From NCBI GenBank assembly GCA_037968895.1, contig JBBKWJ010000208.1, positions 1 through 19,980 of the forward strand: a stretch of 19,980 nt of DNA. Direction: 5' to 3'. The stretch is from Acidimicrobiales bacterium (GTDB taxonomy: Bacteria > Actinomycetota > Acidimicrobiia > Acidimicrobiales > SZUA-35). The translations under genes were made by a program, and so were the position numbers. Below the pieces are notes generated by a model. The model ran no database searches. It had not been told where the DNA came from and saw only the letters and a list, made by a program, of their open reading frames with translations. This document shows positions 2,361 through 18,698 of the stretch, in pieces (the stretch's first letter is position 1; each line of letters begins with the position of its first letter).

Positions 2361-2843
2361 ATGGGTACGTTCCACGAAATCTCAATGAAGTCGATTGTCG
2401 GCGACGACGTCAACTTCGCACAGTACGAAGGCCAGGTTGTCCTCGTCGTCAACGTCGCCAGCGCTTGAGGCCTTACGCCTCAGTACGCAGGTCTGCGTAC
2501 GCTTCATGAGCAGTTTGCCAACGACGGTTTTAGCGTCTTGGGTTTCCCTTGCAACCAGTTCGCAAACCAGGAACCAGGGACAAATGAAGAGATTCTTGCC
2601 TTTGCAACCGACAACTACGACGTGAACTTTCCCATGTTCGCCAAAATCGATGTCAACGGCGAACAAGAGGCGCCGCTCTTCACCTACCTGAAGGCCGCAC
2701 AGCCGAATGACGATGGCTCATCTGACATCGTGTGGAACTTCAACAAATTCCTGGTCGGTCGAGACGGTGCAGTGTTGGCCCGCTTCGCTCCAACCGTTAC
2801 TCCCGAGCAAATTGCAGAACAGCTACCTGGGTTCTTGAGCTAG
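2361..2843 (+). CDS. Glutathione peroxidase, probable selenoprotein (in-frame TGA at 2466..2468 decoded as Sec)
   Basis: The ATG at 2361 is preceded by an AAAGGA RBS. Reading through the TGA in frame gives MGTFHEISMKSIVGDDVNFAQYEGQVVLVVNVASA-U-GLTPQYAGLRTLHEQFANDGFSVLGFPCNQFANQEPG...VWNFNKFLVGRDG. The TGA sits exactly where the peroxidatic Cys/Sec lies in the GPx motif NVASxC/UGxT, and the Gln (FPCNQF) and Trp/Asn (WNFNKF) catalytic motifs are intact downstream. The six-frame track shows only the C-terminal TTG-started piece at 2538..2843. Confidence 0.75.
2479..2510 (+). other. Candidate bacterial SECIS hairpin directing Sec insertion at UGA 2466..2468
   Basis: The hairpin starts 11 nt 3' of the UGA. 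An 8-bp stem GUACGCAG/CUGCGUAC has a small GGUC-type apical loop, and it is extended by CUCA/UGAG with an asymmetric bulge. The apex GCAGGUCUGC is identical to the apical segment of the E. coli fdhF SECIS element, as I recall that sequence. Confidence 0.6.
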
Positions 2844-4589
2844 TTGGTCATCGCCGCCGAGCGCGGCACCTTGGCGCGCTTCGCCTGGTTGTTCAATTCC
2901 CATGAGCTTCGGCAATGAGAATCCCAGGCGAAGCAGGCCGAGGCCGACGATAAGAAAGAGGCCGGCTCGCCACAGCGCATCGACCGACGCAAGGTCGATA
3001 GTAAGCAGCTTGGCGACGGTCAATGCGAGAACGCCGAGACCTGTCCCGCCGACGAGTGGGCGGCGGAAGTAGCCGCCGCCAACGAGTAGGGCAGTTCCGA
3101 CGGCAGCCCACGAGAGCGAAACTGCCGCGTGTCCTTGCGGGAGATGGACCAAGACTGATCCGAGCCAGGCGAGCGCAAGTCCGAGTAGGCCGAACGCCCC
3201 GATGTAGCGCAACTCTCGCTCTTGCATGATGTAGACGGCGGCGGCCAAGGCCGCGATAGTTGCGAGGTGCAGCGCATCGTTGCCGATCGTCACGTTATCT
3301 GTCCACGCCTCGAGCATGAGGACAGCCACCCAGCCCGAGCTAATGACCAATAACACCAGGGCGTTGACAAGCACTCGCACACTGTTCCCTAGATAGCGGC
3401 GGAGCAAGAGCAGCCCGGCACCTTGCACAGCGAGGCCAAGGAAGGTGTATTCGGCGGCGACGAAGGCCCCGAGCGCCACAGAGAGGGTCACGCTCGCCCC
3501 GACGAGTGTCGACACAAAATGAGCGGGCTTCACGTATTGGCGCATTACGAATGCCAAGAACGCAACGGCCACAGTGACAACGAGTGCCAGATAGCGCCAT
3601 GCCGGTTCTCCGTCGAGCTCGAGGCCCAGACCGATACAGAGCAGCAACCAGGGGGCGACAGCACCTGCACCCTGCACCTCCAGTTGTTGCCAGGCCGTTT
3701 GAAGATTCCCAATGCTCGGGAGGTACAGCACCGCCAGAGCGACGATCGCAAGGGCGATCAATAAAACCATCTGCGAGCCGGTGTCGTCCGCTAGGTGAGA
3801 GATTCCAGCGAACCATGCTGCAAGACCGATGAAGCTTGCGAGTCGTAAGCCGTGCCATCCTCGTTCTAGCGCCAATGCCAGTCCCGGTCCGAGAATGATG
3901 AGGCCCCACAAGATCGCGAGGACAACTGGACTGTCCCAAACCTGCAATGCCACGCCGCCTGCGATTCCGCCGCCGGCCGTAGCCAAACCCACCCATTCAG
4001 AGTTGATGAAGCGAGCCAACCCGTAGCCACCGAACATGACGATGACGGTAAGCACCAATCCCGCGTTGGTGCCGACAAGGTCGACGAAGAGTGACGAACC
4101 AAATGTCGTAAAGAACGTGAGCACACCGCCGCTGCAGAGAGCCGCTGTCCAGTGCGGGCGGGTTGGTTGAACTCGAACTCCGGCAGCTATAAGGGCGCCG
4201 CCAAGCAGCATGGCCCCGAGGAGTTGAAGTTCAGGACCTATCCAACCCCGTTGGATAGCCGTGCTGAGGGCGAACCCAACAGCGAGGACGACGAGCGCTA
4301 TGCCGCCCCATTTAAGGACAGCCTCAGAATCGAGTTCGGGACGAGGGGCCCGCTGAGCGGGCTGGGTCTGATCGAGCTGAGTCTGATCGGGCGGGGAATA
4401 CAGCAGCGGAGGAGGCCCAGGCGCGGATTGTGTGCCTGCCATGGGCGGCGGCGGCATCGCAGCCAAGTCATCGGCGGAAGTGCGAGCCGCCCAGGGCGTT
4501 TTGGCCTCGCGGAGCGACCTCACCTCGGTCTCGAGATCTCGAACCCGATTCTCCAGTTGCGCTAGTCGCTGGTTCTCTTGTTCGTACAT
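2823..4589 (-). CDS. Polytopic membrane protein, DUF2339-like (N-terminal coiled coil, Pro-rich linker, many TM helices)
   Basis: The 588-aa product begins with a heptad-like leader MYEQENQRLAQLENRVRDLETEVRSLRE, followed by a Pro/Gln-rich linker and then at least 14 hydrophobic helices. A GGGAGG RBS lies 8 nt upstream of the ATG at 4589. The family assignment is from memory of the architecture and is not certain. Confidence 0.6.
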   Translation of the reverse strand: MYEQENQRLAQLENRVRDLETEVRSLREAKTPWAARTSADDLAAMPPPPMAGTQSAPGPPPLLYSPPDQTQLDQTQPAQRAPRPELDSEAVLKWGGIALVVLAVGFALSTAIQRGWIGPELQLLGAMLLGGALIAAGVRVQPTRPHWTAALCSGGVLTFFTTFGSSLFVDLVGTNAGLVLTVIVMFGGYGLARFINSEWVGLATAGGGIAGGVALQVWDSPVVLAILWGLIILGPGLALALERGWHGLRLASFIGLAAWFAGISHLADDTGSQMVLLIALAIVALAVLYLPSIGNLQTAWQQLEVQGAGAVAPWLLLCIGLGLELDGEPAWRYLALVVTVAVAFLAFVMRQYVKPAHFVSTLVGASVTLSVALGAFVAAEYTFLGLAVQGAGLLLLRRYLGNSVRVLVNALVLLVISSGWVAVLMLEAWTDNVTIGNDALHLATIAALAAAVYIMQERELRYIGAFGLLGLALAWLGSVLVHLPQGHAAVSLSWAAVGTALLVGGGYFRRPLVGGTGLGVLALTVAKLLTIDLASVDALWRAGLFLIVGLGLLRLGFSLPKLMGIEQPGEARQGAALGGDDQLAQEPR

Positions 4590-4649: not shown

Positions 4650-5534
4650 TCACGCCTGATCTTGGGTGTCGCCTTGATCGCTGGCAAGGTGTCCGCGCCG
4701 ATGGCCGCCCTGCCAATCTTCCTGCGCGCCTGCTGCGACAGCACCAAAGACTGCGAGCTGAGGAACTTCGCGAAGGCTGCGCTTCATCTCAGCAAAGCCA
4801 GGAAAGGCTGCGAGCGTCGTTACGGCGCTCCAGAGCGGGACCGCCTCGGCATCGCTAGGCACCCGTGAGATCACTGGTCCAAAGAACGACACACCATGCG
4901 GCGGCTCAAAGGAGATTATTGGTGTGCCAACATCTCGGCCCGTCCGGGTTAGCGCGAGCTCAGTCTCTTCGTCGAGCTCCTGGTCCCACTTGGTGTCGTC
5001 AAGCGCAGCCGCATACGAAATAGGCAATCCCGCTGCTCGCAGCACATCTTCGACGTGCTCGGTCGAACTCAGGCGCTCACGCATTCCCGAACCCTTCGGC
5101 TGGTCCCAGTAGCTCTCGCCATAGGCAGTGACGAGAGCGCCAAGTGGTTCGCGCCCAAGGTCGGCCCGAACCGCAGCCGCAACCCGAAGCATTCGGAGTC
5201 CGGCGGTGTGACCTTGCTCGTATTCGGGCGGGAACTCCGTTGCATAGTCTTTGTCTTTGTTGAGAAGGCGGAGCGAGATGAAGCGCCAGTCAACGGCGTA
5301 GCCAGTTTGTTCTGCGACCTTGACAATCCAACGTGAGGTAACCCAAGCGAAAGGACAGACCGGGTCCCAGAAGAACTCGATGTCGTAGGTGGTTGGGTCG
5401 GGATCAGTACTAGTCACGGATTGCATCCTACGGGAGCCGAAGTCGAACGACGAAATGGTGGCCGCCAAGGTGAACGGGAGGTGAACAGCCGTTGAACGAC
5501 CGAAGAAATTACGTGTCTTAGGGTCCTTGGTCAT
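4650..5534 (-). CDS. DsbA-family thiol oxidoreductase, Rv2466c-like (mycothiol-dependent reductase family), monothiol CPFA variant
   Basis: The product resembles Rv2466c-type DsbA-like proteins: FFWDPVCPFAWVTSRW, and ...DVGTPIISFEPPHGVSFFGPVISRVPSDAEAVPLWSAVTTLAAFPGFAEMKRSLREVPQL compared with Rv2466c ...[23 protein letters not shown]...FELKRTRTEPPQF. The active-site motif is CPFA rather than CPWC. The true start may be the internal ATG at 5426, at MQSVTSTDPD. Confidence 0.65.
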   Translation of the reverse strand: MTKDPKTRNFFGRSTAVHLPFTLAATISSFDFGSRRMQSVTSTDPDPTTYDIEFFWDPVCPFAWVTSRWIVKVAEQTGYAVDWRFISLRLLNKDKDYATEFPPEYEQGHTAGLRMLRVAAAVRADLGREPLGALVTAYGESYWDQPKGSGMRERLSSTEHVEDVLRAAGLPISYAAALDDTKWDQELDEETELALTRTGRDVGTPIISFEPPHGVSFFGPVISRVPSDAEAVPLWSAVTTLAAFPGFAEMKRSLREVPQLAVFGAVAAGAQEDWQGGHRRGHLASDQGDTQDQA

Positions 5535-7451: not shown

Positions 7452-7871
7452 ATGAGCGACCCCAAGCCAGCCCAGTTTCGGAAAACTAAGACAGGTAAGT
7501 GGGCCGTCATGGCGCCCGTCGAATCACTTGAGAAGGCACTCAAGGAAGATGGCGGCGTGGTGCAGGTCTTGAAGAAGTCGGGCGACTATTCGACCTTCAC
7601 CGTTGGCTCGCTCGGTAAGGCATTTGACGTCGACGGCGAACAGATGTGTTACGGATACAGCCCTGAAGACTCCGAAGACTCAGACGGTACTCGTGCTACG
7701 TCGTCACGATCAGCATCGCAACAGTCGAGCACAGGCGAATGGCCGGCCGCCTCAGACGCAGATCCGAGTCAACCGGGCACTGTGAATCTCGACGCTCCAC
7801 CCGCCGATTCGTCCGAACCAATGCCTGAATTTCAGGGCGGTTCAGACGACGAATGGGACGGCGGCTTCTAG
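7452..7871 (+). CDS. Hypothetical protein with a basic N-terminal domain and a long acidic Ser/Asp/Glu-rich tail ending DDEWDGGF
   Basis: The 139-aa ORF shows coding-like codon usage and no recognisable family. It sits 120 nt upstream of the NfeD-like gene on the same strand. Confidence 0.4.
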   Translation: MSDPKPAQFRKTKTGKWAVMAPVESLEKALKEDGGVVQVLKKSGDYSTFTVGSLGKAFDVDGEQMCYGYSPEDSEDSDGTRATSSRSASQQSSTGEWPAASDADPSQPGTVNLDAPPADSSEPMPEFQGGSDDEWDGGF

Positions 7872-7993
7872 CCGTCGGACATTTCTCGGGAACTCTCCGA
7901 CTCGTCTCGTCGTTTGCGCTACATCAGGTTGACGGCAATACTTCGGTGACTGGCGGCACATCTTGGCCACTGCACCAGATTTGGGGGAGTCGG

Positions 7994-8611
7994 GTGGAGC
8001 GTTTCATCGAAATAGCATTTGGCATGCCAACGGCGCTCTTTACGACGCTGTTGCTGATCTCGCTCGGCTACTGGATTGTCAGCCTTGTAAGCGGGATTGA
8101 CAGCGGAGCGGAGGTTGGCCTCGATGCCGATGTTGATACTGACTTCGAGGCGTCTGCTGGCTTACTGGCGGCACTTGGGCTTCACCGCATCCCATTCAGT
8201 CTGGTGATCACGGTGGTGTCGCTCACGGCGTGGCTTATCTCTCTCATTCTTGTGTTTCTCGTGACCGATGGAGGATCGACCTCACTATGGTTGGCTCTAC
8301 CAATCATCTTCGGTTCCCTGATCGGTGGACTGCTCGTAGCAAGTCCGGTCGCTCGCCTCGCGGCGCCCTTGTTCGCAGTTCACCCCGCGATGCATAGAGA
8401 AGATCTCATTGGTCGGGAATGCGTTGTCAAGACCGGTCATGTCGATGAAAGTTTCGGGCAAGCCGAGGTGGTCGACGAAGAATACGGAACTCATATTGTT
8501 CAGGTGCGGTGCCCGGCTCCCAATGAGCTGCGCTCAGGCACGAAGGCACATCTCATCGATGTCAATAACGACGGTGAGTTCCAGATCGCAGCAGGACTGT
8601 TGGACTTCTAG
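7994..8611 (+). CDS. YqiJ/NfeD-like inner-membrane protein (DUF1449-like) with a C-terminal OB-fold
   Basis: The protein has two or three TM helices followed by a soluble beta-rich C-terminus, LIGRECVVKTGHVDESFGQAEVVDEEYGTHIVQVRCPAPNELRSGTKAHLIDV, which is comparable to the E. coli YqiJ C-terminus. It lies immediately upstream of the flotillin gene, as in yqiJK and nfeD-floT pairs. The start is chosen as GTG 7994 with a GGGGGAG RBS (ATG 8024 is the alternative). The track's 7853 start overlaps the previous gene. Confidence 0.65.
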   Translation: MERFIEIAFGMPTALFTTLLLISLGYWIVSLVSGIDSGAEVGLDADVDTDFEASAGLLAALGLHRIPFSLVITVVSLTAWLISLILVFLVTDGGSTSLWLALPIIFGSLIGGLLVASPVARLAAPLFAVHPAMHREDLIGRECVVKTGHVDESFGQAEVVDEEYGTHIVQVRCPAPNELRSGTKAHLIDVNNDGEFQIAAGLLDF

Positions 8612-8672
8612 GACTGCACAGAGCTAGTCCTGCACACACACTCGAAGTAAGAAAAGAAGGATAAGGGGTCAC

Positions 8673-10589
8673 ATGGATACGGTAATAATCGGCATTTTGG
8701 TCGTCGTAGCGGTGGTGTTGCTTGTATTACTCGCAGTCGCAGCGATGATCTCGACGTTGTACAAGAAGGTCCCTCAAGGTAAGGCGTTGGTCGTTTCGAC
8801 GATGAAGACAGTTGCCGTCACCTTCACCGGCCGAGTTGTCCTTCCGGTGGTGCACAAGGCCGAGGTGATGGACATCTCAGTGAAGACGATCGAGATCGAT
8901 CGTCGAGGCGCTGAAGGGCTTATCTGCCAGGACAACATTAGGGCTGACATCAAGGTCAACTTCTTTGTCAGGGTGAACAAGGCCGAAGAGGATGTCATCA
9001 AGGTTGCTCAAGCCATTGGTTGCAACCGGGCTAGCGACATTGTGACTCTTGAGGAGCTATTTGCTGCCAAGTTCTCCGAAGCGTTGAAGACCGTTGGCAA
9101 GCAGATGGAGTTCGTCTCGCTCTATACCGAGCGGGCTTTATTCCGTGATCGGATCATCGCCGTCATTGGCACCGATCTCAACGGGTACGCGCTCGAAGAC
9201 GTCGCTATCGACTATCTCGAGCAGACTCCCCTCAATCAGCTCGATTCGAACAACATTCTTGACGCCCAAGGCATTCGTAAGATCACTGAGCTCACTGCGA
9301 TAGAGCGCGTAGCCACCAATAACGCGTCGAACGACGAGTCGAAGCAGATAACGGCCAAGAACGTGGAGACACGGGAAGCAGTGTTGGAGCTTGAGCGTCA
9401 GCAGGCCGATGCCGAAGCGCGTCAACGTCGCGAGGTCGAGACCGTCAAGGCTCGTGAGCAAGCCACAATTGACACCATCGTCGCCGAAGAAACACTTCGA
9501 GCTGAGATGGCTAATCTCGAAGTTCAACAGAAGATTGGGATCGAGCAAGAGAACCTACAGCGCGAGGTCGAAGTCGCAGGGAAGAACCGCGAGCGAGTGC
9601 TGGCGGTTGAAACCGAGCGCGTGCAGAAGGCACAAGAGCTTGAAATGATGTCTCGCCGAGTCGAGACACTGTCGGCCGAGAAGTCGTTGGAAGAAGAGAA
9701 GGGCACGATTGCCGAGATTCGGCGGAGCCGGGTCGCCACAGAGAAGACCGTCGCTGAGCAAGAAGAGTCAATCGAGACGCTTCGTGTTGTCGAGCAAGCG
9801 AATCGGGAGCGGCAGGCAATCGTGGTCATGGCCGAGGGTGAGGCTCAGAGCCTCCTCGTCAAAGACATTAAGAAGGCTGAGGCCGCGGAAGAAGCGTCCC
9901 GCCATGAAGCGACGCGCCAGCTCACTCTGGCCAAGGCCGAAATGGAGGCCGCCGATCTTTCAGCACAAGCGAAGATTCGACTAGCTGAAGGTGTGAAAGC
10001 CGAATCAGCTGCCATCGGACTCGGCGAGGTCGAGGTTGACCGGGCAAAGGCAAACGCAATTCGGGAAACCGGAATCGCACACGTCGACGTCGAGCGAGCA
10101 CAGGCCGAGATTGTTCGCGAGCTCGGAACCGCCGAAGCCTCCGCCATAGAGGCCAAGTTGAAGGGCGAGGCCTCTGGTCTGACCGAAAAGGCTGAAGCCA
10201 TGAAGAAGCTCGAAGGCGTTGGACAAGAGCACGAAGAGTTCGTACGCGAGCTTGAAGCAGATACCAAGGTGCGACTTGCCGAGGTCGAGGCTCGAGTCGG
10301 TGTCGCAACGGCTCAGGCCGACGCGATGAAGACCGGTCTCGAGAATGCCAACATCGATATTGTCGGCGGCTCGGACATTTTCATTGACCGACTCGTCGGC
10401 TCTATTTCGGCTGGCAAATCAGTCGACGCATTCGTTGACTCATCGGAGGTCGCGGCCACCGCGGCAGCCCCGTACCTAGAAGGCAAGGAAGACCTCATCG
10501 CCAAGATTGGTGAGGCAGTATCAGGTATGGGTGCTGACGGCATCCGTGACCTCACTGTGGCTGATCTGCTTCGCAAACTCGGCAAGTGA
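8673..10589 (+). CDS. Flotillin-like SPFH/band-7 protein (YqiK/FloT family) with a long E/A/R-rich coiled-coil C-terminal region
   Basis: An N-terminal TM helix (IIGILVVVAVVLLVLLAVAAMI) is followed by LYKKVPQGKALVV and an SPFH domain, then roughly 350 aa of EA-rich heptad repeats. An AAGGATAAGGGG RBS precedes the ATG. The architecture matches E. coli YqiK and B. subtilis FloT. Confidence 0.85.
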   Translation: MDTVIIGILVVVAVVLLVLLAVAAMISTLYKKVPQGKALVVSTMKTVAVTFTGRVVLPVVHKAEVMDISVKTIEIDRRGAEGLICQDNIRADIKVNFFVRVNKAEEDVIKVAQAIGCNRASDIVTLEELFAAKFSEALKTVGKQMEFVSLYTERALFRDRIIAVIGTDLNGYALEDVAIDYLEQTPLNQLDSNNILDAQGIRKITELTAIERVATNNASNDESKQITAKNVETREAVLELERQQADAEARQRREVETVKAREQATIDTIVAEETLRAEMANLEVQQKIGIEQENLQREVEVAGKNRERVLAVETERVQKAQELEMMSRRVETLSAEKSLEEEKGTIAEIRRSRVATEKTVAEQEESIETLRVVEQANRERQAIVVMAEGEAQSLLVKDIKKAEAAEEASRHEATRQLTLAKAEMEAADLSAQAKIRLAEGVKAESAAIGLGEVEVDRAKANAIRETGIAHVDVERAQAEIVRELGTAEASAIEAKLKGEASGLTEKAEAMKKLEGVGQEHEEFVRELEADTKVRLAEVEARVGVATAQADAMKTGLENANIDIVGGSDIFIDRLVGSISAGKSVDAFVDSSEVAATAAAPYLEGKEDLIAKIGEAVSGMGADGIRDLTVADLLRKLGK

Positions 10590-13500
10590 GCACTTATGAC
10601 CTCCTTCGTAGTCGGCTTGAGGCGAGCGCAACTGCGCTCGCCGAGCGCGCTGGTTCGCTCAACAAGCGTCGAACCGAGGTCTTTGGGTCGTCCGTATTCG
10701 CGTTGAGGGGAACCGAGCGGCTCCGTAGCGAAAACGCAAACGTGCCCCGCGATGTTTCAAGTATCGACGGCCAACTCATTGTTGCGTACAACCCGGCACC
10801 GGGAGCGCTGACGTCAGTCAAGCCAAACGACATTTTTGCTATCCACAATCTGGAGCGTTCGTCGTCAGGCGAGATGGTACTTAACGCGAACCCGAACGGG
10901 CTCGATGCGTCTGTCCTTGACGACGCCCAGTTTCGACGCGACTTCGACGAGCTTCATACGTACTACAAAGACGCTCGAGTCCAGCAGTTGTATCGTGTTG
11001 CGAACCGCATGCTCGCTGTATTCCGCATTGGGACAGCGCGTTCTGACATCCGAGTTCTGAGATGGTCAGTCAATCCTGACGGGTCACTCCAGTACCTCGA
11101 CGCTCGCGGCGAACGTGATCACAAAGCGCCTGCTCGCCACGATGTCGACTGGACGTTGGTGACTCGGGAAGACCATGTCGGCGAGTCACACGTCTCGCTA
11201 TCGGACCGGGTACTGATTAACCCTCTCAACGGCACCATTGAGCTGATGATGCCCGACCGTTCGCTTCTGCTGAGCGATCCGGTGAACCATGCCGACCAGT
11301 CACTTGCGGACTGCACAATCCGGTGGGCAACGTGTGGCGACCTCATCGTCATCGACCTGTTGCCGTACGGCGAGCTCGACCATCGCTACTACGTCGCGAA
11401 TTTGCTCGATCACACTGCCACCAGAATTGATGAACTTGGTCAGGCGTTTCGCCAGTTGCCCGAGGGACAGGGTTTCATCCATCCGAGAGGTGTCTTTCTC
11501 AAGAATGGACAACACCAGTCGTTCGATCTCGAGGCCGACCAGATGGAACTACTTGAGGTTGTGCGATCACCCAATGGCGAGGACATGTTGTATGTCTTCT
11601 ACGAGCAGGAATCAGGACGGTCGATCCTCCTGCCATACAACGTGGTTCGCCAGGAGGTCACGACTCCACTTCGGTGCGATGGGCATTCGATCTTTGCTGA
11701 CGGAACCATGGTGATGTTCCGCGAAGAACATGAGCCCACCCGAATTCACCCAATGCAGATTTGGGAGACCCCATTCGCCAGCGACGAATGGTTCGCCGCT
11801 CAACCTCGCGAGATCTCCGACCTTGACCGAATAGGAAATGCTGCGCTCGTGCGAGGCATTGCTGACGCGCTTGCGCTTTCGAGACTCATTGGCAGCATTG
11901 AACCCTCGTCGGAGCTCTACGGTGACCTCCTCGGCTCCGTGGGGCGCTTCCTCGACCAGCATCATTGGGCAGAGTCAGTCGATGTTGGCAACCTCGCTGA
12001 ACCGGCACGAGAGATGCAGGTTGTTGCTGGACAGGTCATTGACGAGTTCGAACGAGTGCTCGAGGTTAAAGCCGTGGCAACGGCGACGCTCGACGAAGCG
12101 CGTCAGACGTTCAATCAGCATCACGAAGAAGAACGAATTTCGCCGCCGGCGACCACAGAAGCGTTCATCAATCTGCTAGGGCTTTATCGCCACGATCTGG
12201 GCCATCTTCACTCGATCCGAGACCAGCCTGAAGTCGACGTGGCCGCTGTCGACGAACTAGTAACCGAAGCAACCGCAGCCCACGCCGCAACGGCTCAGAA
12301 GGCGGCCGGACACCTCGCAGGCGACGGAGCATTTGCTCCTTACCACGAACGATTAGCGCGGATCACAGGTTCAATCGACGAAGCTGGGTCGTCAATCGCA
12401 GCGCGTGAGCTCCTTGAGGAAGTCGACGGGGTTGCAACCTCAATGGACGTGGTTTCTTCCACCGTTGGCGACCTTGTTGTTGACGACCCCCGAGTGCGAA
12501 CTTCAGTTCTCGAACAGGTGTCGCAGGTTCTCGCTTCCTTAAATCAGGTGCGAGCTCGTGTCGAGACGAAACAAGAATCGCTGATTGAGGCAGAGACCGG
12601 AGCGTCGTTCGCAACCGAGCTTGGGCTCTTTGGTCAGTCGATTGCATCGGCACTGAGCAGAGTCGATGAGCCGAAGGGGTGCGACGAAGCGTTGGGGCGG
12701 CTTCTTCTGCAGCTCGAACAGCTTGAGACTGCTGGTCCGCGCAGCGACGAGCAGATCCGTGAGCTTGAACTTCGTCGCGAGCAGGTAACCGAAACGGTCT
12801 CGGCGCGGCGCCAGAAACTCGTCGATGAACGGGAGGCCAAAGCACAACGGCTCGTTGGAGCCGCCGAGCGAACACTCGAACGGATCACAGAACGTGCGGC
12901 GGCACTTCCGTCCGTGGACGATGTGAACGGGTTCTTTGCCGCTGATCCCATGACTGCTCGCGTCCGCGACCTGACAGACCAGCTTCGCGAGCTCGGCGAG
13001 GCCGTAAAGGCGGACGAACTCAAGAGCCAGTTGGGGGCGGCTCGCGACAATGCGGCGCGCCTCATTCTCGATCGAGCCGAACTCTTCGACGGCGAGCTCA
13101 TCAAACTTGGTCGCCATCGTTTTAGCGTCGACAAACAGCGCCGCGAACTGACGATCGTGCCCCGAGACGGACGTTTACAGGCTGTCTTGACCGGAACAGA
13201 CTTCGCACTCGACCTCCACGATGAGCGCCTAGAAGCGCACCGTGACCTGTGGAGCGAACCGCTGGTGTCGGAGTCGCGTGACCTCTACCGGGGTGCATAC
13301 CTCGCGGCCGGCATCCTTGACGACGCCTTGAGTTCTGGACAAGTGCCAATGTGGGAAGACGTCGTTCGCGAAGCAGTCGACTCTCGTCTCGACGAGGGCT
13401 ACGACCGCGGTGTGCATGACCACGATGCAGTCCTCCTCGTATCGGCGTGGGCAGCAGGCGCAGCGACTGCTGGCCCTCTCCTGTATCCAAGCCGTGTTCG

Positions 13501-15262
13501 GGCCGAGGCGCTGTGGCACTGGTTCGACGAACTGAGCGAGGAACAGCGGGTCGATTGGATCGGCCGTGGCAAGGCGGCAGCCGAGCTCGGACAAGCAGTT
13601 GAGCCCGTTCTCGGCAGCTACATGGCAGACGAACTCACCGCATCTGCGGGGTTCGCTCCGTCGATGTCTCACGAGACCGCGCGCCATGTGCGGCTGTTTT
13701 CCGGCGACCAGAAAGTGCAATCGGTGCTTACGTCGGCCAGCCAAAATCCACGAGCGTATCGAGAGGTACTTGAGCGGTACGTCGCCGCTTCGGCACCCTA
13801 CGACATCGCAGCCGAGATTGTCGTCACGCTCCTGTTCCCAGAGCCTGAGCGCCGTATTCGCACGATCGATCTCGACTGCACCGTCAGCGGTCTGCTAGGA
13901 CGTCACCCAACGATTCAGGATGGCACGCTCAGAGTGTCTCTCGACGAGCTGCTTGACCTGTCCCGCCACCAACGCAACGATGTTGCGCCCCGTCACCGGG
14001 CATTTGTGGCGGCTCGGCGTGAAATCGTCGACCAGCTCAAGGGAAACCTCCGCGTACATGACCTTGTGCCGCACGTGCCAGAAGGCTTTGTGCGAAACCG
14101 GCTTATCGACGAGGTGTATCTCCCGCTCATTGGCGGCAACCTGGCTCGCCAGATCGGCACTGTCGACGACACATCTGCTGCACGATCGGGCCTTCTGATG
14201 CTGCTGTCGCCTCCCGGTTACGGCAAGACAACACTCATTGAGTACGTGGCTGATCGCCTAGGTATGGCGCTAGTTAAGGTGTCCGGACCGGGGTTGGGAC
14301 ACGATGTCACATCGCTTGACCCGGCTCAGGCGGCGAGTAGCACGTCTCGTCGTGAGCTCGATCGAATCAACATGGCGTTTGCGATTGCGTCAAACGTGAT
14401 CCTCTACATCGACGACATTCAGCACACGAATCCCGAGTTTCTACAGCGCTTCATTTCACTCACTGATGCTCAACGAAGAGTCGAGGGGGTGCTTGAAGGC
14501 GAATCGCGCACGTTCGATCTTCGTGGAAAGCGCTTTGCCGTCGTCATGGCCGGCAATCCGTATACAGAGTCGGGGGAGCGGTTTCGTATTCCCGACATGC
14601 TGGCAAACCGTGCCGATACCTACAACCTGGGTGATGTGCTGGCAGACAGTGAGCGTGCCTTTGCGCTTAGCTACATCGAGAACTCTCTCACATCCAACCC
14701 GGCTGTGACCCGAATCGGGCGTGACCTCGATGCGTTCATGGCTGGCCTGGATGGTGGGTCGGTCGACGAAGCGGCGCTGACCCAGCGCTATTCTGCGGCC
14801 GAACAGAACGATATTGTTCGCCTGCTCCATCACCTCAGAACTGTCCAGCAGACGGTTCTGACAGTGAATAGGCAGTACATCGCGTCTGCGGCGACAGGGG
14901 ATGCATATCGCACCGAACCGCCGTTTCTGCTGCAAGGTTCATACCGAAATATGACGAGATTGGCAGCACAGTTGCTGCCAGCGATGACAGAGGATGAAGT
15001 TGAGGAGATTCTCGACGCTCACTACACGGCTGAGTCTCAGTCATTGACTGGAGCGGCCGAGGCGAATCTTCTGAAGCTGGCGCAACTTCGAGGCAAGATG
15101 ACGCCAACCCAAGAGACTCGCTGGAACGAGATCATCACAGTCTTCCAGCGAAAGCAGCGCCTTGGTGGTGGCGACGACGACCCTGTTGCGCGCGTCGTCG
15201 CCGCGATAGATCAGGTCTCCGATGCCCTGAGCGGTCGAGTCAACCACTCTCCGTACGATTAG
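10586..15262 (+). CDS. Giant (1558 aa) flotillin-associated protein with a C-terminal AAA_5 (MoxR/McrB-like) ATPase domain; function unknown
   Basis: The GTG start overlaps the flotillin TGA stop (aaGTGAgc). A Walker A motif LLMLLSPPGYGKTTL lies at roughly nt 14210-14240. A Walker B motif VILYIDDIQH lies at roughly nt 14395-14425. Sensor-1 is AVVMAGNPY, and a MoxR-like motif is FRIPDMLANRADTY. The central region, roughly aa 600-900, is long, helical and coiled-coil-like. The first ~400 aa match no family I recognise. Confidence 0.8.
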   Translation: MSTYDLLRSRLEASATALAERAGSLNKRRTEVFGSSVFALRGTERLRSENANVPRDVSSIDGQLIVAYNPAPGALTSVKPNDIFAIHNLERSSSGEMVLNANPNGLDASVLDDAQFRRDFDELHTYYKDARVQQLYRVANRMLAVFRIGTARSDIRVLRWSVNPDGSLQYLDARGERDHKAPARHDVDWTLVTREDHVGESHVSLSDRVLINPLNGTIELMMPDRSLLLSDPVNHADQSLADCTIRWATCGDLIVIDLLPYGELDHRYYVANLLDHTATRIDELGQAFRQLPEGQGFIHPRGVFLKNGQHQSFDLEADQMELLEVVRSPNGEDMLYVFYEQESGRSILLPYNVVRQEVTTPLRCDGHSIFADGTMVMFREEHEPTRIHPMQIWETPFASDEWFAAQPREISDLDRIGNAALVRGIADALALSRLIGSIEPSSELYGDLLGSVGRFLDQHHWAESVDVGNLAEPAREMQVVAGQVIDEFERVLEVKAVATATLDEARQTFNQHHEEERISPPATTEAFINLLGLYRHDLGHLHSIRDQPEVDVAAVDELVTEATAAHAATAQKAAGHLAGDGAFAPYHERLARITGSIDEAGSSIAARELLEEVDGVATSMDVVSSTVGDLVVDDPRVRTSVLEQVSQVLASLNQVRARVETKQESLIEAETGASFATELGLFGQSIASALSRVDEPKGCDEALGRLLLQLEQLETAGPRSDEQIRELELRREQVTETVSARRQKLVDEREAKAQRLVGAAERTLERITERAAALPSVDDVNGFFAADPMTARVRDLTDQLRELGEAVKADELKSQLGAARDNAARLILDRAELFDGELIKLGRHRFSVDKQRRELTIVPRDGRLQAVLTGTDFALDLHDERLEAHRDLWSEPLVSESRDLYRGAYLAAGILDDALSSGQVPMWEDVVREAVDSRLDEGYDRGVHDHDAVLLVSAWAAGAATAGPLLYPSRVRAEALWHWFDELSEEQRVDWIGRGKAAAELGQAVEPVLGSYMADELTASAGFAPSMSHETARHVRLFSGDQKVQSVLTSASQNPRAYREVLERYVAASAPYDIAAEIVVTLLFPEPERRIRTIDLDCTVSGLLGRHPTIQDGTLRVSLDELLDLSRHQRNDVAPRHRAFVAARREIVDQLKGNLRVHDLVPHVPEGFVRNRLIDEVYLPLIGGNLARQIGTVDDTSAARSGLLMLLSPPGYGKTTLIEYVADRLGMALVKVSGPGLGHDVTSLDPAQAASSTSRRELDRINMAFAIASNVILYIDDIQHTNPEFLQRFISLTDAQRRVEGVLEGESRTFDLRGKRFAVVMAGNPYTESGERFRIPDMLANRADTYNLGDVLADSERAFALSYIENSLTSNPAVTRIGRDLDAFMAGLDGGSVDEAALTQRYSAAEQNDIVRLLHHLRTVQQTVLTVNRQYIASAATGDAYRTEPPFLLQGSYRNMTRLAAQLLPAMTEDEVEEILDAHYTAESQSLTGAAEANLLKLAQLRGKMTPTQETRWNEIITVFQRKQRLGGGDDDPVARVVAAIDQVSDALSGRVNHSPYD

Positions 15263-15304: not shown

Positions 15305-16372
15305 ATGAATTCCCCCTACTCTCGAATACCTTCGTCCGCTGCTCTTCTCGTTCTACCCCTGGTCGCGGCAGCGTGTGCCAGTAATGTGGATGCTGCGGCC
15401 GTGTCGACTCCAGTAACGACCGAGGTTGTCGAGACGGCCACTACTGCGGTGCAAACTACCGAGACGCCGAAAACGGTCGCTCCAGTCACAGAGTGCGGGA
15501 CGCCGGGCGTCGCCGAATACACGCTCGAAGAATCTGGAACGAGTTACGCCGTCCGTGTGTTTTTGCCCCGAGCGATCGACGCTGAGGCACCCGCTCCCGT
15601 CGTGCTGAATTGGCATGGTCTTGGTTCGGAGGGCTCAGTCCAAGCAACCTTCACTGCGTATGAGATGCTCGCCGAGTCCAAAGGTTTCATTGTGGCGAGC
15701 CCGACAGGAGTCCCCGCCCCTGGTGATGATCGAAACTCATGGGAGTTGATTCAGCTCGACACACCAGACCGCGACGATGTTGCCTTCGCGTCAGCCCTAA
15801 TTGACGACATCACTGAGCGCTTCTGCGGTGATGTAACCCGCGTCTATTCCACCGGAATGTCAAACGGCGGACTGTTTACGAGCCGCCTGATCTGTGACCT
15901 TGCCGACAAGATTGCAGCCGCGTCGTCGGTCGCCGGACTCACCCATCCCGACGAATGCGAACCATCTCGAGCGGTGCCGTTCATCGCATTTCATGGCACC
16001 GACGATGGCGTCGTGCCGTACGACGGAACCAGAGGCTCAAGCAGCCTCCTACCTTCCGGAGCCCCGCCAGAACTCGTCGAGTTCTTCTCACAGGTCATGC
16101 CCGATGAGTTTGCCGAGTTCGCGGCTGACGCAGGTTGCTCGGCGGAGCCGGTCGTGACTGAAATTTCTGGAGAACTCATTTCGTACGATTATCAGGGTTG
16201 TGCGAACGACACTCCGATGACGTTCTACGAATTTATTGGTGGCGGGCACACATGGCCCGGCTCACCCTTCGCTGCGATCCTCGAAGCGAGCGGACTTGGC
16301 TATACGACGCTCGATATCGACGCCACGGCCGCCTCGTGGGAGTTCTTCCAGCAGCACACGCTCAACGATTAG
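15305..16372 (+). CDS. Secreted esterase lipoprotein, PHB-depolymerase family (LpqC-like, COG3509)
   Basis: A signal peptide with a lipobox-like ...LVAAAC is followed by a Thr/Val-rich linker. The Ser nucleophile is in GMSNGG (GxSxG). The motifs FHGTDDGVVPY and GGGHTWPG are typical of LpqC-type esterases. Confidence 0.7.
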   Translation: MNSPYSRIPSSAALLVLPLVAAACASNVDAAAVSTPVTTEVVETATTAVQTTETPKTVAPVTECGTPGVAEYTLEESGTSYAVRVFLPRAIDAEAPAPVVLNWHGLGSEGSVQATFTAYEMLAESKGFIVASPTGVPAPGDDRNSWELIQLDTPDRDDVAFASALIDDITERFCGDVTRVYSTGMSNGGLFTSRLICDLADKIAAASSVAGLTHPDECEPSRAVPFIAFHGTDDGVVPYDGTRGSSSLLPSGAPPELVEFFSQVMPDEFAEFAADAGCSAEPVVTEISGELISYDYQGCANDTPMTFYEFIGGGHTWPGSPFAAILEASGLGYTTLDIDATAASWEFFQQHTLND

Positions 16373-17200
16373 CCTTGGCGAGCAGCCTGTTGGCGACGAA
16401 GCTCGCAGCGACCGAAGCGACGCGTACATGCGAGCGAGGGGAGTGTCGTCGGAGACGCCGACTGCGCCGTACACCTGAATTGCCTGATCAACGACAGTAG
16501 TAGCCGTCTGCATCACGAGAACTTTAATGGCCGACATGTCGGGCGCCGCTGCCTTGTCGCCCTCGACGTCCATCTACCACGCAGTGTGCAACGTCATGAG
16601 TCTGGCCGAATCAATGTTGATTCGGGCGTTTGCGATCCATTCTTGGATGTTCGCTCGAGACGAAACGAGTCCGCCGAACGTGGAGCGACTGTCTGCCCGT
16701 TCGCACAGGAGCGAGAGGGCCTGTTCCGCGACGCCGATGGTCCTCATGCAGTGCTGCACTCTCGCTGGTTGCCTAGGAGTGCGTCGGCTGGCAAACGTAC
16801 GTTGTTGAGTGCCAATTCGGTGTGTCCGTCGGCGTCCAGGTAACCAAACTTCGGCAGATTGCGAACCACGGTGAGGCCTGGAGTATCTCTGGGCACGACA
16901 AACACGGAATGTCGGCGGTGTCGTGACGCGGCGGGATCCGACCATCAAGTTGGGGCGTCAGCCACTGCTCCTTCTGGGCTGCGCTCCCATACAGGATGAG
17001 AGCATCACCGTTGATACTTGATGGCGCGTCGCAGTTGGTTGCCTCTTGGGCCAGCCGACTTGTGCCGAGGATCTCAGCGAGCGGGGCGTAGTCGAGGCTC
17101 GTCAGTCCAGGACCGTAGTTCGGAGGTCTGACGCCAGCGTGAGGGAACGATTCGAATGCGTGAAATCCATCAGTGGTCCTCCGTGGCGTGCCGTCAATCT
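16340..17200 (-). pseudogene. Acyl-CoA dehydrogenase pseudogene (internal deletion, frameshift and in-frame TAG)
   Basis: The minus-strand translation gives ACAD blocks in three different frames: RPPNYGPGLTSLDYAPLAEILGTSRLAQEATNCDAPSSINGDALILYGSAAQKEQWLTPQLDGRI, then about 90 aa missing (no RSCFAMTEP block), then SVFVVPRDTPGLTVVRNLPKFGYLDADGHTELALNNVRLPADALLGNQRE, then a frame change to ...RVQHCMRTIGVAEQALSLLCERADSRSTFGGLVSSRANIQEWIANARINIDSARLMTLHTAW, then an in-frame TAG at about 16574, then MDVEGDKAAAPDMSAIKVLVMQTATTVVDQAIQVYGAVGVSDDTPLARMY. The N-terminus is truncated by a stop, and both ends are approximate. Confidence 0.7.
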
Positions 17201-17267
17201 AGTGTGGCGGAAGTATCCGCAAGCTAATCCGGTTAGAAGACTGACCATCCCGCAGATAGGACGCGCT

Positions 17268-18698
17268 TTGAGCAACAACCAATACGATCTTGTGGCAATT
17301 GGTGGGGGAACGGCCGCCCTCGTCGCCACTATCGCTGCTGCGGGCCTTGGGGCCAAAGCCGTCCTAATTGAAATGGAGAAGCCAGGGGGCGACTGCCTCT
17401 GGACTGGTTGCGTGCCAAGCAAGGCGCTTCTGTCCGCGGCTGCGTTGGCAAGCGATATGCGTAACGCGAAGTCAGTTGGACTGAGCGCAGTAGAACCAGT
17501 GATCGACTTTCCTGCAGTCATGGCACACGTCAAAGGCGCGCAGGCCGTTATTGAGCCCCATGATTCGGCTGAGCACCTCGAGGCAGAAGGAGTCGAGGTC
17601 ATCATCGGCCGAGGCGAGTTTCTCGGCCCAGGCAAGATCAAGGTTGGCGACCGAGTGATCGAGTTTCGTTCGGCTCTCATCGCGACCGGTTCGCATCCTG
17701 TGGTTCCGCCAATTCCGGGGCTGGTTGACGCGGATCCGCTGACCAGCCATAACGTCTGGGACCTCAAGGCCCTCCCAGCCCGTCTTGTCGTCCTTGGCGG
17801 GGGGCCGATCGGTTGTGAGCTTGGTCAGGCGTTCGGTCGACTCGGATCGAACGTCACATTGATCGAAGCCGAAGCAGGCCTACTTCCCCGTGAGCCAAGC
17901 GAGGTGGGCGCCTATCTGGGCGAGGTCCTTCGCTCCGAAGGCATCGATGTGCGAGTCGGTGTTCGAGCCGAGTCAGTCGAGGCCCATGAAGGGGCATACC
18001 GAGTTAATCTGGCCGACGGAACCTCGGTTGACTTCGACAGGATTCTCGTGGCTGTCGGCCGCCGGGCCAACTCTGCGAACCTCGGACTTGAGCTTGTCGG
18101 TGTAGACGTCGACGAAAGAGGCCACGTCGTCGTCGACGACACGATGCGGACTACTGGCGACAACATCTTCGCTGCCGGAGATGTGACAGGGAAGATGCCG
18201 TTTACGCCCGTCGCCGCACACCAGGCCAGGGCCGTCGTGGCGAACGCCCTGTTCAAAGCGCGTAAGAAGGCCAAGTACGACCAGATCCCCTGGGTTACGT
18301 TCACTGCTCCAGAGATCGCAAGGGTAGGGCTCGACGGCGCAGCAGCCCGTGAGAAGTGGGGATCCAAGGCGATCGTCGAGCGGTTCGACTACGCCAACCT
18401 CGACCGAGCCATAACGCACGGACGGACAGGAGGCTGGGTCGAACTCGTCGGTGACAAGAAGCGAAGAATTGTTGGCGCGACCATCGTTGGTGAGGCGGCA
18501 GGGGAGAGCATCGCCGAGATCGTCGCCTTCATGACTGCAGGCGCCAAGATCGACACACTGTCGACGACTGTGCATGCCTATCCAACCTTTTCCGAGGGGG
18601 CGAGCCGAGCAGCAAATAGTGTTCTCGCGGACCGCTACTTCAGTCCGAGAGCCAAGCGAGTTAGTTCGATGGTCCGACGAGTACTTCGTCTGTTCTAG
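17268..18698 (+). CDS. FAD-dependent pyridine nucleotide-disulfide oxidoreductase, class I (dihydrolipoyl dehydrogenase / mercuric reductase-like)
   Basis: The product has the Rossmann motif YDLVAIGGGTAA, the redox-active disulfide GGDCLWTGCVPSK, a second dinucleotide fold LVVLGGGPIGCELGQ, and the C-terminal dimerisation His-Pro motif HAYPTFSE. I place the start at TTG 17268 (AGGA plus 6 nt) because the 74 aa added by the track's ATG at 17046 have no family similarity and run antisense over the ACAD pseudogene. Confidence 0.75.
   Translation: MSNNQYDLVAIGGGTAALVATIAAAGLGAKAVLIEMEKPGGDCLWTGCVPSKALLSAAALASDMRNAKSVGLSAVEPVIDFPAVMAHVKGAQAVIEPHDSAEHLEAEGVEVIIGRGEFLGPGKIKVGDRVIEFRSALIATGSHPVVPPIPGLVDADPLTSHNVWDLKALPARLVVLGGGPIGCELGQAFGRLGSNVTLIEAEAGLLPREPSEVGAYLGEVLRSEGIDVRVGVRAESVEAHEGAYRVNLADGTSVDFDRILVAVGRRANSANLGLELVGVDVDERGHVVVDDTMRTTGDNIFAAGDVTGKMPFTPVAAHQARAVVANALFKARKKAKYDQIPWVTFTAPEIARVGLDGAAAREKWGSKAIVERFDYANLDRAITHGRTGGWVELVGDKKRRIVGATIVGEAAGESIAEIVAFMTAGAKIDTLSTTVHAYPTFSEGASRAANSVLADRYFSPRAKRVSSMVRRVLRLF

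Follow-up and report, generated by a model that had tools for sequence, protein, structure and literature searches.

In this work, we present the analysis of a glutathione peroxidase (GPx) gene from an Acidimicrobiales bacterium, in which the reading frame is interrupted by a single UGA codon followed shortly downstream by a conserved hairpin. The gene lies in a 19,980-nt stretch of DNA (contig JBBKWJ010000208.1), the whole of which is called the window throughout the text. Judging from the sequence and its homologues, we put at roughly 90% the probability that the hairpin at 2483-2500 is a bacterial SECIS located inside the coding sequence of a selenocysteine (Sec)-containing GPx, with the UGA being read as Sec. 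A sequence-only reading of the window had already proposed that the UGA is a programmed Sec codon with a SECIS downstream of it, and the proposal is borne out by the catalytic position of the codon, the linkage of the hairpin to UGA among homologues, the frozen synonymous sites and the agreement with the bacterial SECIS consensus. We further infer that SelB binds the hairpin, that Sec is actually inserted and that the genome carries selA, selB, selC and selD.

A glutathione peroxidase frame with one internal UGA

The coding sequence, delimited with the use of Pfam and PDB matches and the open reading frame, occupies positions 2361-2843 of the forward strand and comprises 160 codons, from ATG at 2361 to TAG at 2841-2843, the sole in-frame stop inside it being the TGA at 2466-2468. 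A putative Shine-Dalgarno-like sequence, GAAAGGA, was recognized by eye at 2350-2356 of the same strand, 4 nt 5' of the ATG. The Cys-substituted protein matched the Pfam GSHPx family (PF00255) at 2e-42 with the full model covered, and the NCBIfam glutathione peroxidase match reached 8e-56, yet stayed under the equivalog cut-off. Among PDB entries, yeast Hyr1/Gpx3 (3cmi, 5e-42) was the top match, followed by GPx4 structures. In the alignment to 3cmi, the TGA stands opposite the peroxidatic Cys of NVASKCGFT, which places the putative Sec codon (2466-2468, forward strand) at residue 36 (U36), the peroxidatic position, within the motif NVASA-U-GLT. The GPx family signature NVAS-x-[UC]-G-x-T is thus present in the window protein, with the UGA in its Sec/Cys slot. 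Reassignment of the codon was also considered and was ruled out: of the 15 other genes found in the window, 6 end with TGA as a normal terminator and, therefore, the codon is not reassigned.

Alternatively, the UGA could be a true stop, leaving a pseudogene or a truncated product of 35 aa, with the hairpin as a chance palindrome. Gene callers do take the UGA as a stop, and databases hold many 'glutathione peroxidase' fragments of 101-124 aa starting after it. Besides, the lone 10-mer match of the hairpin to the E. coli fdhF element (described below) is by itself not significant, as with one mismatch allowed 2 matches were found in the window against 2.0 expected; it is conservation, and not the fdhF match itself, which shows that the element is non-random. 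However, both the TGA and the hairpin are found again in related genomes, 28 at the species level, as well as in over 100 contigs from metagenomes, where the downstream frames are intact. Among the Sec homologues the frame 3' of the UGA keeps its amino acids while its synonymous sites vary freely, and such protein-level constraint combined with free synonymous change indicates that the region is translated. Persistence of an intact UGA-containing frame across dozens of species is incompatible with a dead gene. Consequently, we regard a real stop combined with a chance palindrome as effectively refuted, its remaining probability being negligible.

Folding, conservation and covariation of the hairpin

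The core of the putative SECIS (2483-2500, forward strand), as defined by RNAfold and by conservation, consists of the 5' arm GUACGCA (2483-2489), the loop GGUC (2490-2493) and the 3' arm UGCGUAC (2494-2500), and codes for (Q)-Y-A-G-L-R-T. This 18-mer is folded by RNAfold into a 7-bp stem with a GGUC tetraloop at -8.5 kcal/mol. In the fold of 2466-2520 (55 nt), which has an MFE of -21.3 kcal/mol (z = -2.3 versus dinucleotide shuffles) and contains three small helices, it forms the central one. The presence of a hairpin 3' of the in-frame UGA, claimed in the sequence-only reading, is hereby confirmed both by the RNAfold stem and by its conservation in Sec homologues. The perfect stem and the GGUC loop described there are likewise correct, but their dimensions are 7 bp and 4 nt and not 8 bp and 2 nt. 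The inverted repeat GUACGCAG/CUGCGUAC extends over 2483-2490 and 2493-2500; an eighth pair, G2490-C2493, would leave a sterically impossible 2-nt loop, hence the stem of 7 bp and the tetraloop. The loop G and U at 2491-2492 (forward strand), equivalent in the comparison with the verified fdhF element to its G23/U24, to which contact with SelB is ascribed in E. coli (PMC8659212), presumably make the contact with SelB here as well.

A spacer of 14 nt (2469-2482, forward strand), recognized in the sequence and in the MFE fold and composed of the codons G-L-T-P and the CA of Gln, separates the UGA from the stem, and the distance from the UGA to the loop is 21 nt (2469-2489). The earlier figure of about 11 nt has to be replaced accordingly, since the conserved stem begins 14 nt past the UGA. 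A lower stem CUCA (2479-2482)/UGAG (2507-2510), also proposed at that time, is absent from the MFE fold; as no more than 3 of 111 related sequences have it in full, it does not belong to the element. In the window, the spacer may instead pair with the UGA itself, through UGAGGC (2466-2471) and GCCUCA (2477-2482), and this 5' helix is present in the MFE fold. We considered it as a candidate conserved lower stem: 79.7% of its cells are paired in the close set, and at least 5 of 6 pairs are kept in 54 of 111 sequences. Due to this partial conservation and the lack of clear covariation, it was left as an optional part of the structure.

For the comparison of UGA and Cys forms, one genome per GTDB species was scanned, which returned 80 GPx loci, the best of them from Acidimicrobiia MAGs with 60-70% identity. 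The catalytic codon is TGA in 26 of these 80 homologues and TGC or TGT in the other 54. The two closest relatives, obtained via the protein database, have the identical TGA and hairpin: L081 (ENA ERZ23877680), of metagenomic origin like L082 and syntenic with the window, shows 88% identity over the post-UGA protein, and L082 (Acidimicrobiales MAG GCA_041394345.1), partly syntenic, shows 80%. Altogether, the hairpin is present in 28/28 of the closest UGA homologues (26 from GTDB plus L081 and L082) and in 0/54 of the Cys homologues. The TGA loci carry GUACGCAGGUCUGCGU(A/G)C at the same offset, with the exception of two single-mismatch sequences and of L046, where a G-C pair is changed to A-U in a compensated manner (GUACACAGGUCUGUGUGC). 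When the 24-nt segment was folded, the energy averaged -9.6 kcal/mol in Sec forms and -3.4 kcal/mol in Cys forms. We also built a covariance model (R1) on the segment from the UGA to +42; it gives 51-70 bits for Sec genes, 68.8 bits for the window hairpin and at most 21 bits for Cys genes, and nothing else in the window scores. Neither this model nor the 10-mer search revealed a second SECIS copy or another selenoprotein gene in the window.

A broader sample was obtained by scanning metagenome contigs with the pattern V-N-[VL]-A-x-x-UGA-G-x-T-x-Q-Y, which leaves the hairpin unconstrained. The exact 18-mer of the window (A or G at position 17) is held by 76 of the 120 stretches found. Metagenome and genomic loci pooled together gave 125 unique Sec-GPx sequences, and 104 of them have at least 6 of the 7 pairs in the same register, the loop being GGUC in 91 of these 104, GGGU in 12 and GGCU in one. 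Within the close set, 98.8% of cells of the SECIS helix are paired; a single pair is compensatory, and a single one alternates between U-A and U-G. There is almost no variation in the stem within the closest clade, and for this reason the evidence of covariation comes mostly from the more distant metagenomic sequences. In the variant GUAUGCA-GGUC-UGCAUAC, a C-G pair is replaced by U-A at the cost of an Arg to His change, and in GUACACA-GGUC-UGUGUGC, a G-C pair is replaced by A-U together with the changes Ala to Thr and Arg to Cys. The hairpin GUACGC-CGGGUU-GCGUAC was found as well, and some lineages have wholly different stems at the same loop position, e.g. CUCC-GGUCU-GGAG and CCUGC-AGUU-GCAGG. 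Pairing kept through amino-acid changes is what would be predicted for a selected RNA structure. The comparison with Sec-GPx genes of other bacteria, suggested in the sequence-only reading as a check, shows a conserved hairpin with covarying stem positions.

Conservation of this kind might have a reason other than Sec, namely a constraint on the peptide Q-Y-A-G-L-R or a generic role of the RNA in stability, pausing or attenuation. Q-Y-x-G-L is conserved in the Cys homologues too, so part of the sequence is indeed constrained by the protein. Yet the Cys homologues, which often encode Q-Y-A-G-L as well, do it with varied codons (GCC/GCG, GGC/GGG/GGA and CTG/CTC/TTG), and none of the 54 reaches 6 pairs. 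The Sec forms have Arg (CGU) where Cys homologues have Glu or Gln, CGU being needed for pairing with UAC-G. Moreover, the synonymous sites of codons +5 to +10 are frozen in Sec forms only. Third-position entropy was computed within 27 Sec genes, at each codon for those sequences that have the consensus residue. At +7 to +10 it is 0 for Ala, Gly and Leu and 0.24 for Arg, as compared with a minimum of 0.75 and a median of 1.47 for 26 other conserved four- or sixfold degenerate codons (Mann-Whitney p = 8e-4). A purely protein-based or generic RNA constraint is further contradicted by the several lineages that change amino acids (Ala to Thr along with Arg to Cys, or Arg to His) and keep the pairing, and by the decay of the hairpin in the probable Sec-to-Cys revertant L026 (see below). 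We consider retention of the hairpin for such a reason highly unlikely.

Decoding, Sec machinery and the Sec clade

According to the established SelB model, from which the steps given here are drawn, the 7-bp/GGUC hairpin would form 14 nt 3' of the UGA, at the mRNA entrance, as the ribosome nears the UGA at 2466-2468. The C-terminal winged-helix domain of SelB would bind it via the loop G and U, and the tethered complex of SelB, GTP and Sec-tRNA(Sec) would out-compete release factor 2 at the A-site UGA, with Sec being inserted as residue 36. The hairpin would then be melted by the ribosome and decoded as Y-A-G-L-R-T.

No sel genes were found by Pfam in the 20-kb window, where selD in particular was searched for. 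Similarly, the E. coli proteins SelA and SelB, and the C-terminal part of SelB on its own, gave no tblastn match in the window or in about 1.19 Mb of flanking DNA of the loci. ARAGORN detected no tRNA of any kind in the window and no tRNA-Sec in 26 Sec loci, and its local run, which covered all 200+ loci but the E. coli reference (L083), detected no tRNA-Sec either. The lack of selA, selB and tRNA-Sec in this DNA shows no more than that the GPx gene and the Sec machinery are unlinked. Indirect support for the machinery comes, besides the persistence of the UGA-containing frame, from Actinomarina, another lineage of the class Acidimicrobiia, for which complete selA/B/C/D sets have been reported (bioRxiv 10.64898/2026.04.03.716425).

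The fact that no Sec machinery was found in the sequence examined could speak for read-through of the UGA without SelB or Sec, either by hairpin-stimulated near-cognate suppression or with Cys being inserted. Such read-through is difficult to reconcile with the site itself, a catalytic position at which no residue other than Cys or Sec would work, and with the hairpin, which resembles SelB-binding elements in its loop and geometry and has an apex identical to that of fdhF. In addition, the resolving Cys has been lost in the clade, as in animal Sec-GPx, which fits a selenol and not a thiol active site. Decoding without SelB or Sec is thus, in our opinion, highly improbable, and insertion of Sec remains the preferred reading.

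The position in question is occupied in the window by the codon of Ala82 (2604-2606, forward strand), which the alignment places at the resolving-Cys position of 2-Cys GPx, i.e. at Cys82, the resolving Cys of yeast Gpx3. All 29 Sec forms have A, V or T there, and Cys is found in 53 of 54 Cys forms, L026 being the exception. The loss of this residue would imply a GPx4-like selenol mechanism instead of a 2-Cys thioredoxin-dependent cycle. The same loss has been proposed for the Sec-GPx enzymes of animals (PMC8614756), and our results suggest that in bacteria, too, the catalytic cycle is rewired once Sec takes the place of Cys, in the way proposed for animals (PMC8614756).

In a quick neighbour-joining tree, all Sec forms (29/29) fall into one clade, and L026 is the only Cys form nested among them. 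Its hairpin has decayed to GCT GGA TTG AAT, and the gene probably represents a Sec-to-Cys reversion. The Sec clade mixes Acidimicrobiia with Pseudomonadales/Halieaceae MAGs, which suggests that gene and SECIS were transferred horizontally as a unit or, alternatively, that binning was faulty. As a separate observation, an unannotated cluster at 7452-15262 of the window was searched with PADLOC and NCBIfam, which gave weak matches to LmuB and IetA only.

We can propose tentatively, with somewhat less than even confidence, a more general picture: a single, widely distributed cross-phylum Sec-GPx clade with a near-invariant SECIS that has both its apex and its reading frame in common with fdhF, an independent GPx4-like loss of the resolving Cys after the appearance of Sec, and systematic mis-annotation of these genes as fragments of 100-124 aa. 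If true and undescribed, it would represent a case of convergence between enzymes that is tied to a transferable signal for recoding. On the practical side, the gene should be annotated as one 160-residue selenoprotein and not as a 35-aa stub with a fragment of 101-124 aa, an error that is shared by hundreds of database entries. The gene would also mark its source Acidimicrobiia lineage as a selenium user, provide a well-sampled case in which an RNA signal within a coding region takes precedence over the choice of codons, and offer, in its 18-nt core, a very specific probe for metagenomic Sec-GPx genes. The Sec-GPx and SECIS of the window do not overturn current understanding.

Relation to known SECIS elements and Sec-GPx enzymes

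The bacterial SECIS (bSECIS) consensus of Zhang and Gladyshev, used in bSECISearch, comprises a loop of 3-9 nt, an upper stem of 4-16 bp, a G in loop position 1 or 2 that is usually followed by G or U, a UGA-to-loop distance of 16-37 nt and an MFE of -7.5 kcal/mol or lower (PMC13188914 Fig. 2). The hairpin described here, with its 4-nt loop, 7-bp stem, loop-initial GG, distance of 21 nt and -8.5 kcal/mol, falls within the consensus in each of these respects. It is also placed as expected, at 2483-2500, 3' of the UGA at 2466-2468 on the coding strand, and the Sec/Cys pair belonging to the definition is found as well, as the UGA corresponds to Cys in homologues and the structure is kept among Sec orthologues. 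Rfam gave no SECIS match, neither for the whole window at the gathering threshold nor for 2350-2650 under permissive conditions (E <= 10), where chance matches only (mir-598 and others) appeared. Such an outcome is expected, because the SECIS types modelled in Rfam are eukaryotic or, in a few cases, restricted to particular bacterial clades.

The best known element for comparison is that of E. coli fdhF. Its apical sequence was given correctly in the sequence-only reading: of 5,426 complete E. coli genomes, 5,420 contain the 47-mer TGACACGGCCCATCGGTTGCAGGTCTGCACCAATCGGTCGGTAATGG in fdhF with 100% identity, and the apex is common to the window. The apical 10-mer GCAGGUCUGC of the window is identical to that of the fdhF SECIS, and in both genes the frame is such that it codes for Ala-Gly-Leu, while the sequence shared between the window and the 47-mer is GCAGGTCTGC. 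The GGUC loop is also the same, including the G-U that contacts SelB. The two elements differ, however, in spacing, as the stem and the loop lie 11 and 18 nt from the UGA in E. coli fdhF and 14 and 21 nt in the window, i.e. one codon further. The window stem consists of 7 perfect pairs without an equivalent of the bulged U17 of fdhF, which is missing from all close relatives too, and, unlike the fdhF SECIS, the hairpin has no conserved lower helix; the host proteins are unrelated. According to the rules established for E. coli SelB, a 17-nt upper stem-loop is required 11 nt from the UGA, with the bulged U17 and the loop G23/U24 (PMC8659212). Of these features the window has the loop G23/U24 only, its spacing being different and the bulged U17 absent. 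Due to the missing bulged U and the longer spacing, the match to fdhF is only apical, and the element, although it would act in the manner of the fdhF SECIS, is strictly speaking not of the E. coli type. Judged by the published rules, E. coli SelB would probably not accept the hairpin (PMC8659212), which is presumably matched to a SelB different from that of E. coli.

A structural parallel can be drawn with fdhA of Moorella thermoacetica, the SECIS of which likewise has a perfect stem with a GGUC-containing loop and no bulged U, and differs in stem sequence and host gene. A crystal structure of this SECIS with the WH3/4 domains of SelB was reportedly published by Yoshizawa et al. in 2005.

With respect to the protein, the product of the window gene resembles animal GPx4 in its monomeric GPx4-like sequence, peroxidatic Sec and absence of the resolving Cys. 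The genes differ in the recoding signal: animal GPx4 genes employ a SECIS in the 3'-UTR together with SBP2/eEFSec, whereas in the window an in-frame hairpin of bacterial type is used. The nearest counterparts are the bacterial Sec-GPx genes with bacterial-type SECIS reported in 2005 from the Sargasso Sea (PMC1088965), and a 'GPX-like protein, UxxT' is listed among the prokaryotic selenoprotein families in reviews (PMC9312934, PMC13188914). The window gene and those of the Sargasso Sea are alike in kind, sharing a coding-region hairpin 3' of the Sec-UGA, the PF00255 domain and the UxxT motif. What distinguishes the clade of the window from the Sargasso Sea genes (PMC1088965) is its almost invariant 18-nt core, of which, for this clade of Acidimicrobiia and some marine Gammaproteobacteria MAGs, we found no description in the literature cited here. 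Sec-GPx with a bacterial SECIS has been known since 2005, and the window gene is another such member.

Sec-GPx across phyla and a Cys form within the clade

One Sec-GPx clade is common to Gammaproteobacteria MAGs and Acidimicrobiia MAGs, and its 18-nt SECIS is near-identical in the two groups, the gammaproteobacterial side being represented by the homologous loci L013, L014, L017, L018, L021-L023 and L046 from Pseudomonadales, Halieaceae and Pseudomonadota MAGs. Such an occurrence across phyla suggests that the gene was transferred horizontally along with its recoding signal, or else that contigs were mis-binned. A neighbour-joining tree also placed inside the Sec clade one Cys-form GPx, L026 (positions 3106-3147 of the locus), from a Pseudomonadales MAG, in which the catalytic codon is TGT, the SECIS hairpin has decayed (GCT GGA TTG AAT) and residue 82 is Val. 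L026 is probably a recent Sec-to-Cys reversion, and as such a natural control for the SECIS.

In the databases, many of the protein matches (P0001-P0120) titled 'glutathione peroxidase' are 101-124 aa long and start directly after the UGA; this is systematic mis-annotation of this selenoprotein as an N-terminally truncated protein.

Hairpin types and pairing of the UGA

Other hairpins were found in the metagenome Sec-GPx loci. In a separate lineage carrying the motif VNLASF-U-GYTPQY (e.g. L115, L128, L168 and L177) the stem is much longer, at 11-13 bp, and is topped by a loop of 8-14 nt without GGUC; the first nucleotide of this stem is placed as in the window type (G18 after the UGA). In further metagenome lineages the hairpin is CUCC-GGUCU-GGAG or CCUGC-AGUU-GCAGG. 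A few metagenome sequences (e.g. L171, L138 and L096) gave no convincing hairpin in the 60 nt searched, and may be eukaryotic or rely on another signal.

In the window the UGA itself lies within a predicted helix (2466-2482), where UGAGGC is paired with GCCUCA, the latter arm spanning the third base of a Thr codon, the whole of a Pro codon (CCU) and the first two bases (CA) of a Gln codon. At least five of the six pairs are kept in about half of the related sequences, and CCU is the most frequent form of this Pro codon (14/24). Such pairing may amount to a weak lower helix, or may be a coincidence.

Genes surrounding the GPx gene

The GPx coding sequence is convergent with a DUF2339 membrane-protein gene on the minus strand (2823-4589), and the 3' ends of the two overlap by 21 nt (2823-2843). 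Two further redox genes are located in the neighbourhood of the GPx gene: one for an Rv2466c-like mycothiol-dependent reductase or DsbA-fold protein (4650-5534, minus strand), and one for an FAD-dependent pyridine-nucleotide disulfide oxidoreductase similar to MerA, lipoamide dehydrogenase and mycothione reductase (17046-18698, plus strand). Either product might belong to the reducing system of the peroxidase.

Between them, a conserved four-gene cluster on the plus strand (7452-15262) has its counterpart at 14879-20306 of L081, one of the closest relatives. Three of its proteins (139, 252 and 638 aa) gave no match in Pfam, NCBIfam or PADLOC; the fourth, of 1558 aa, contains DUF3686 (described as 'ATPase involved in DNA repair'), DUF7902 and AAA domains; beyond these it showed only weak matches, to LmuB and IetA. 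Three adjacent minus-strand ORF fragments in differing frames (16262-16948) correspond to the central and C-terminal portions of an acyl-CoA dehydrogenase. The region resembles a pseudogene broken by frameshifts, or else an error in the assembly, and it overlaps the 3' end of an esterase-like ORF (15305-16372).

Resolving cysteine in Sec and Cys forms

In the alignment, the position of Cys82, the resolving Cys of yeast Gpx3, is occupied by Ala, Val or Thr in all 29 Sec-GPx sequences compared (L001-L025, L035, L046, L081 and L082), the window having Ala82 (codon 2604-2606, plus strand), whereas 53 of the 54 Cys homologues retain the resolving Cys there. Its absence from the bacterial Sec-GPx set suggests an altered reductant or mechanism, and has a parallel in animal Sec-GPx enzymes, for which a loss of this Cys has been proposed.
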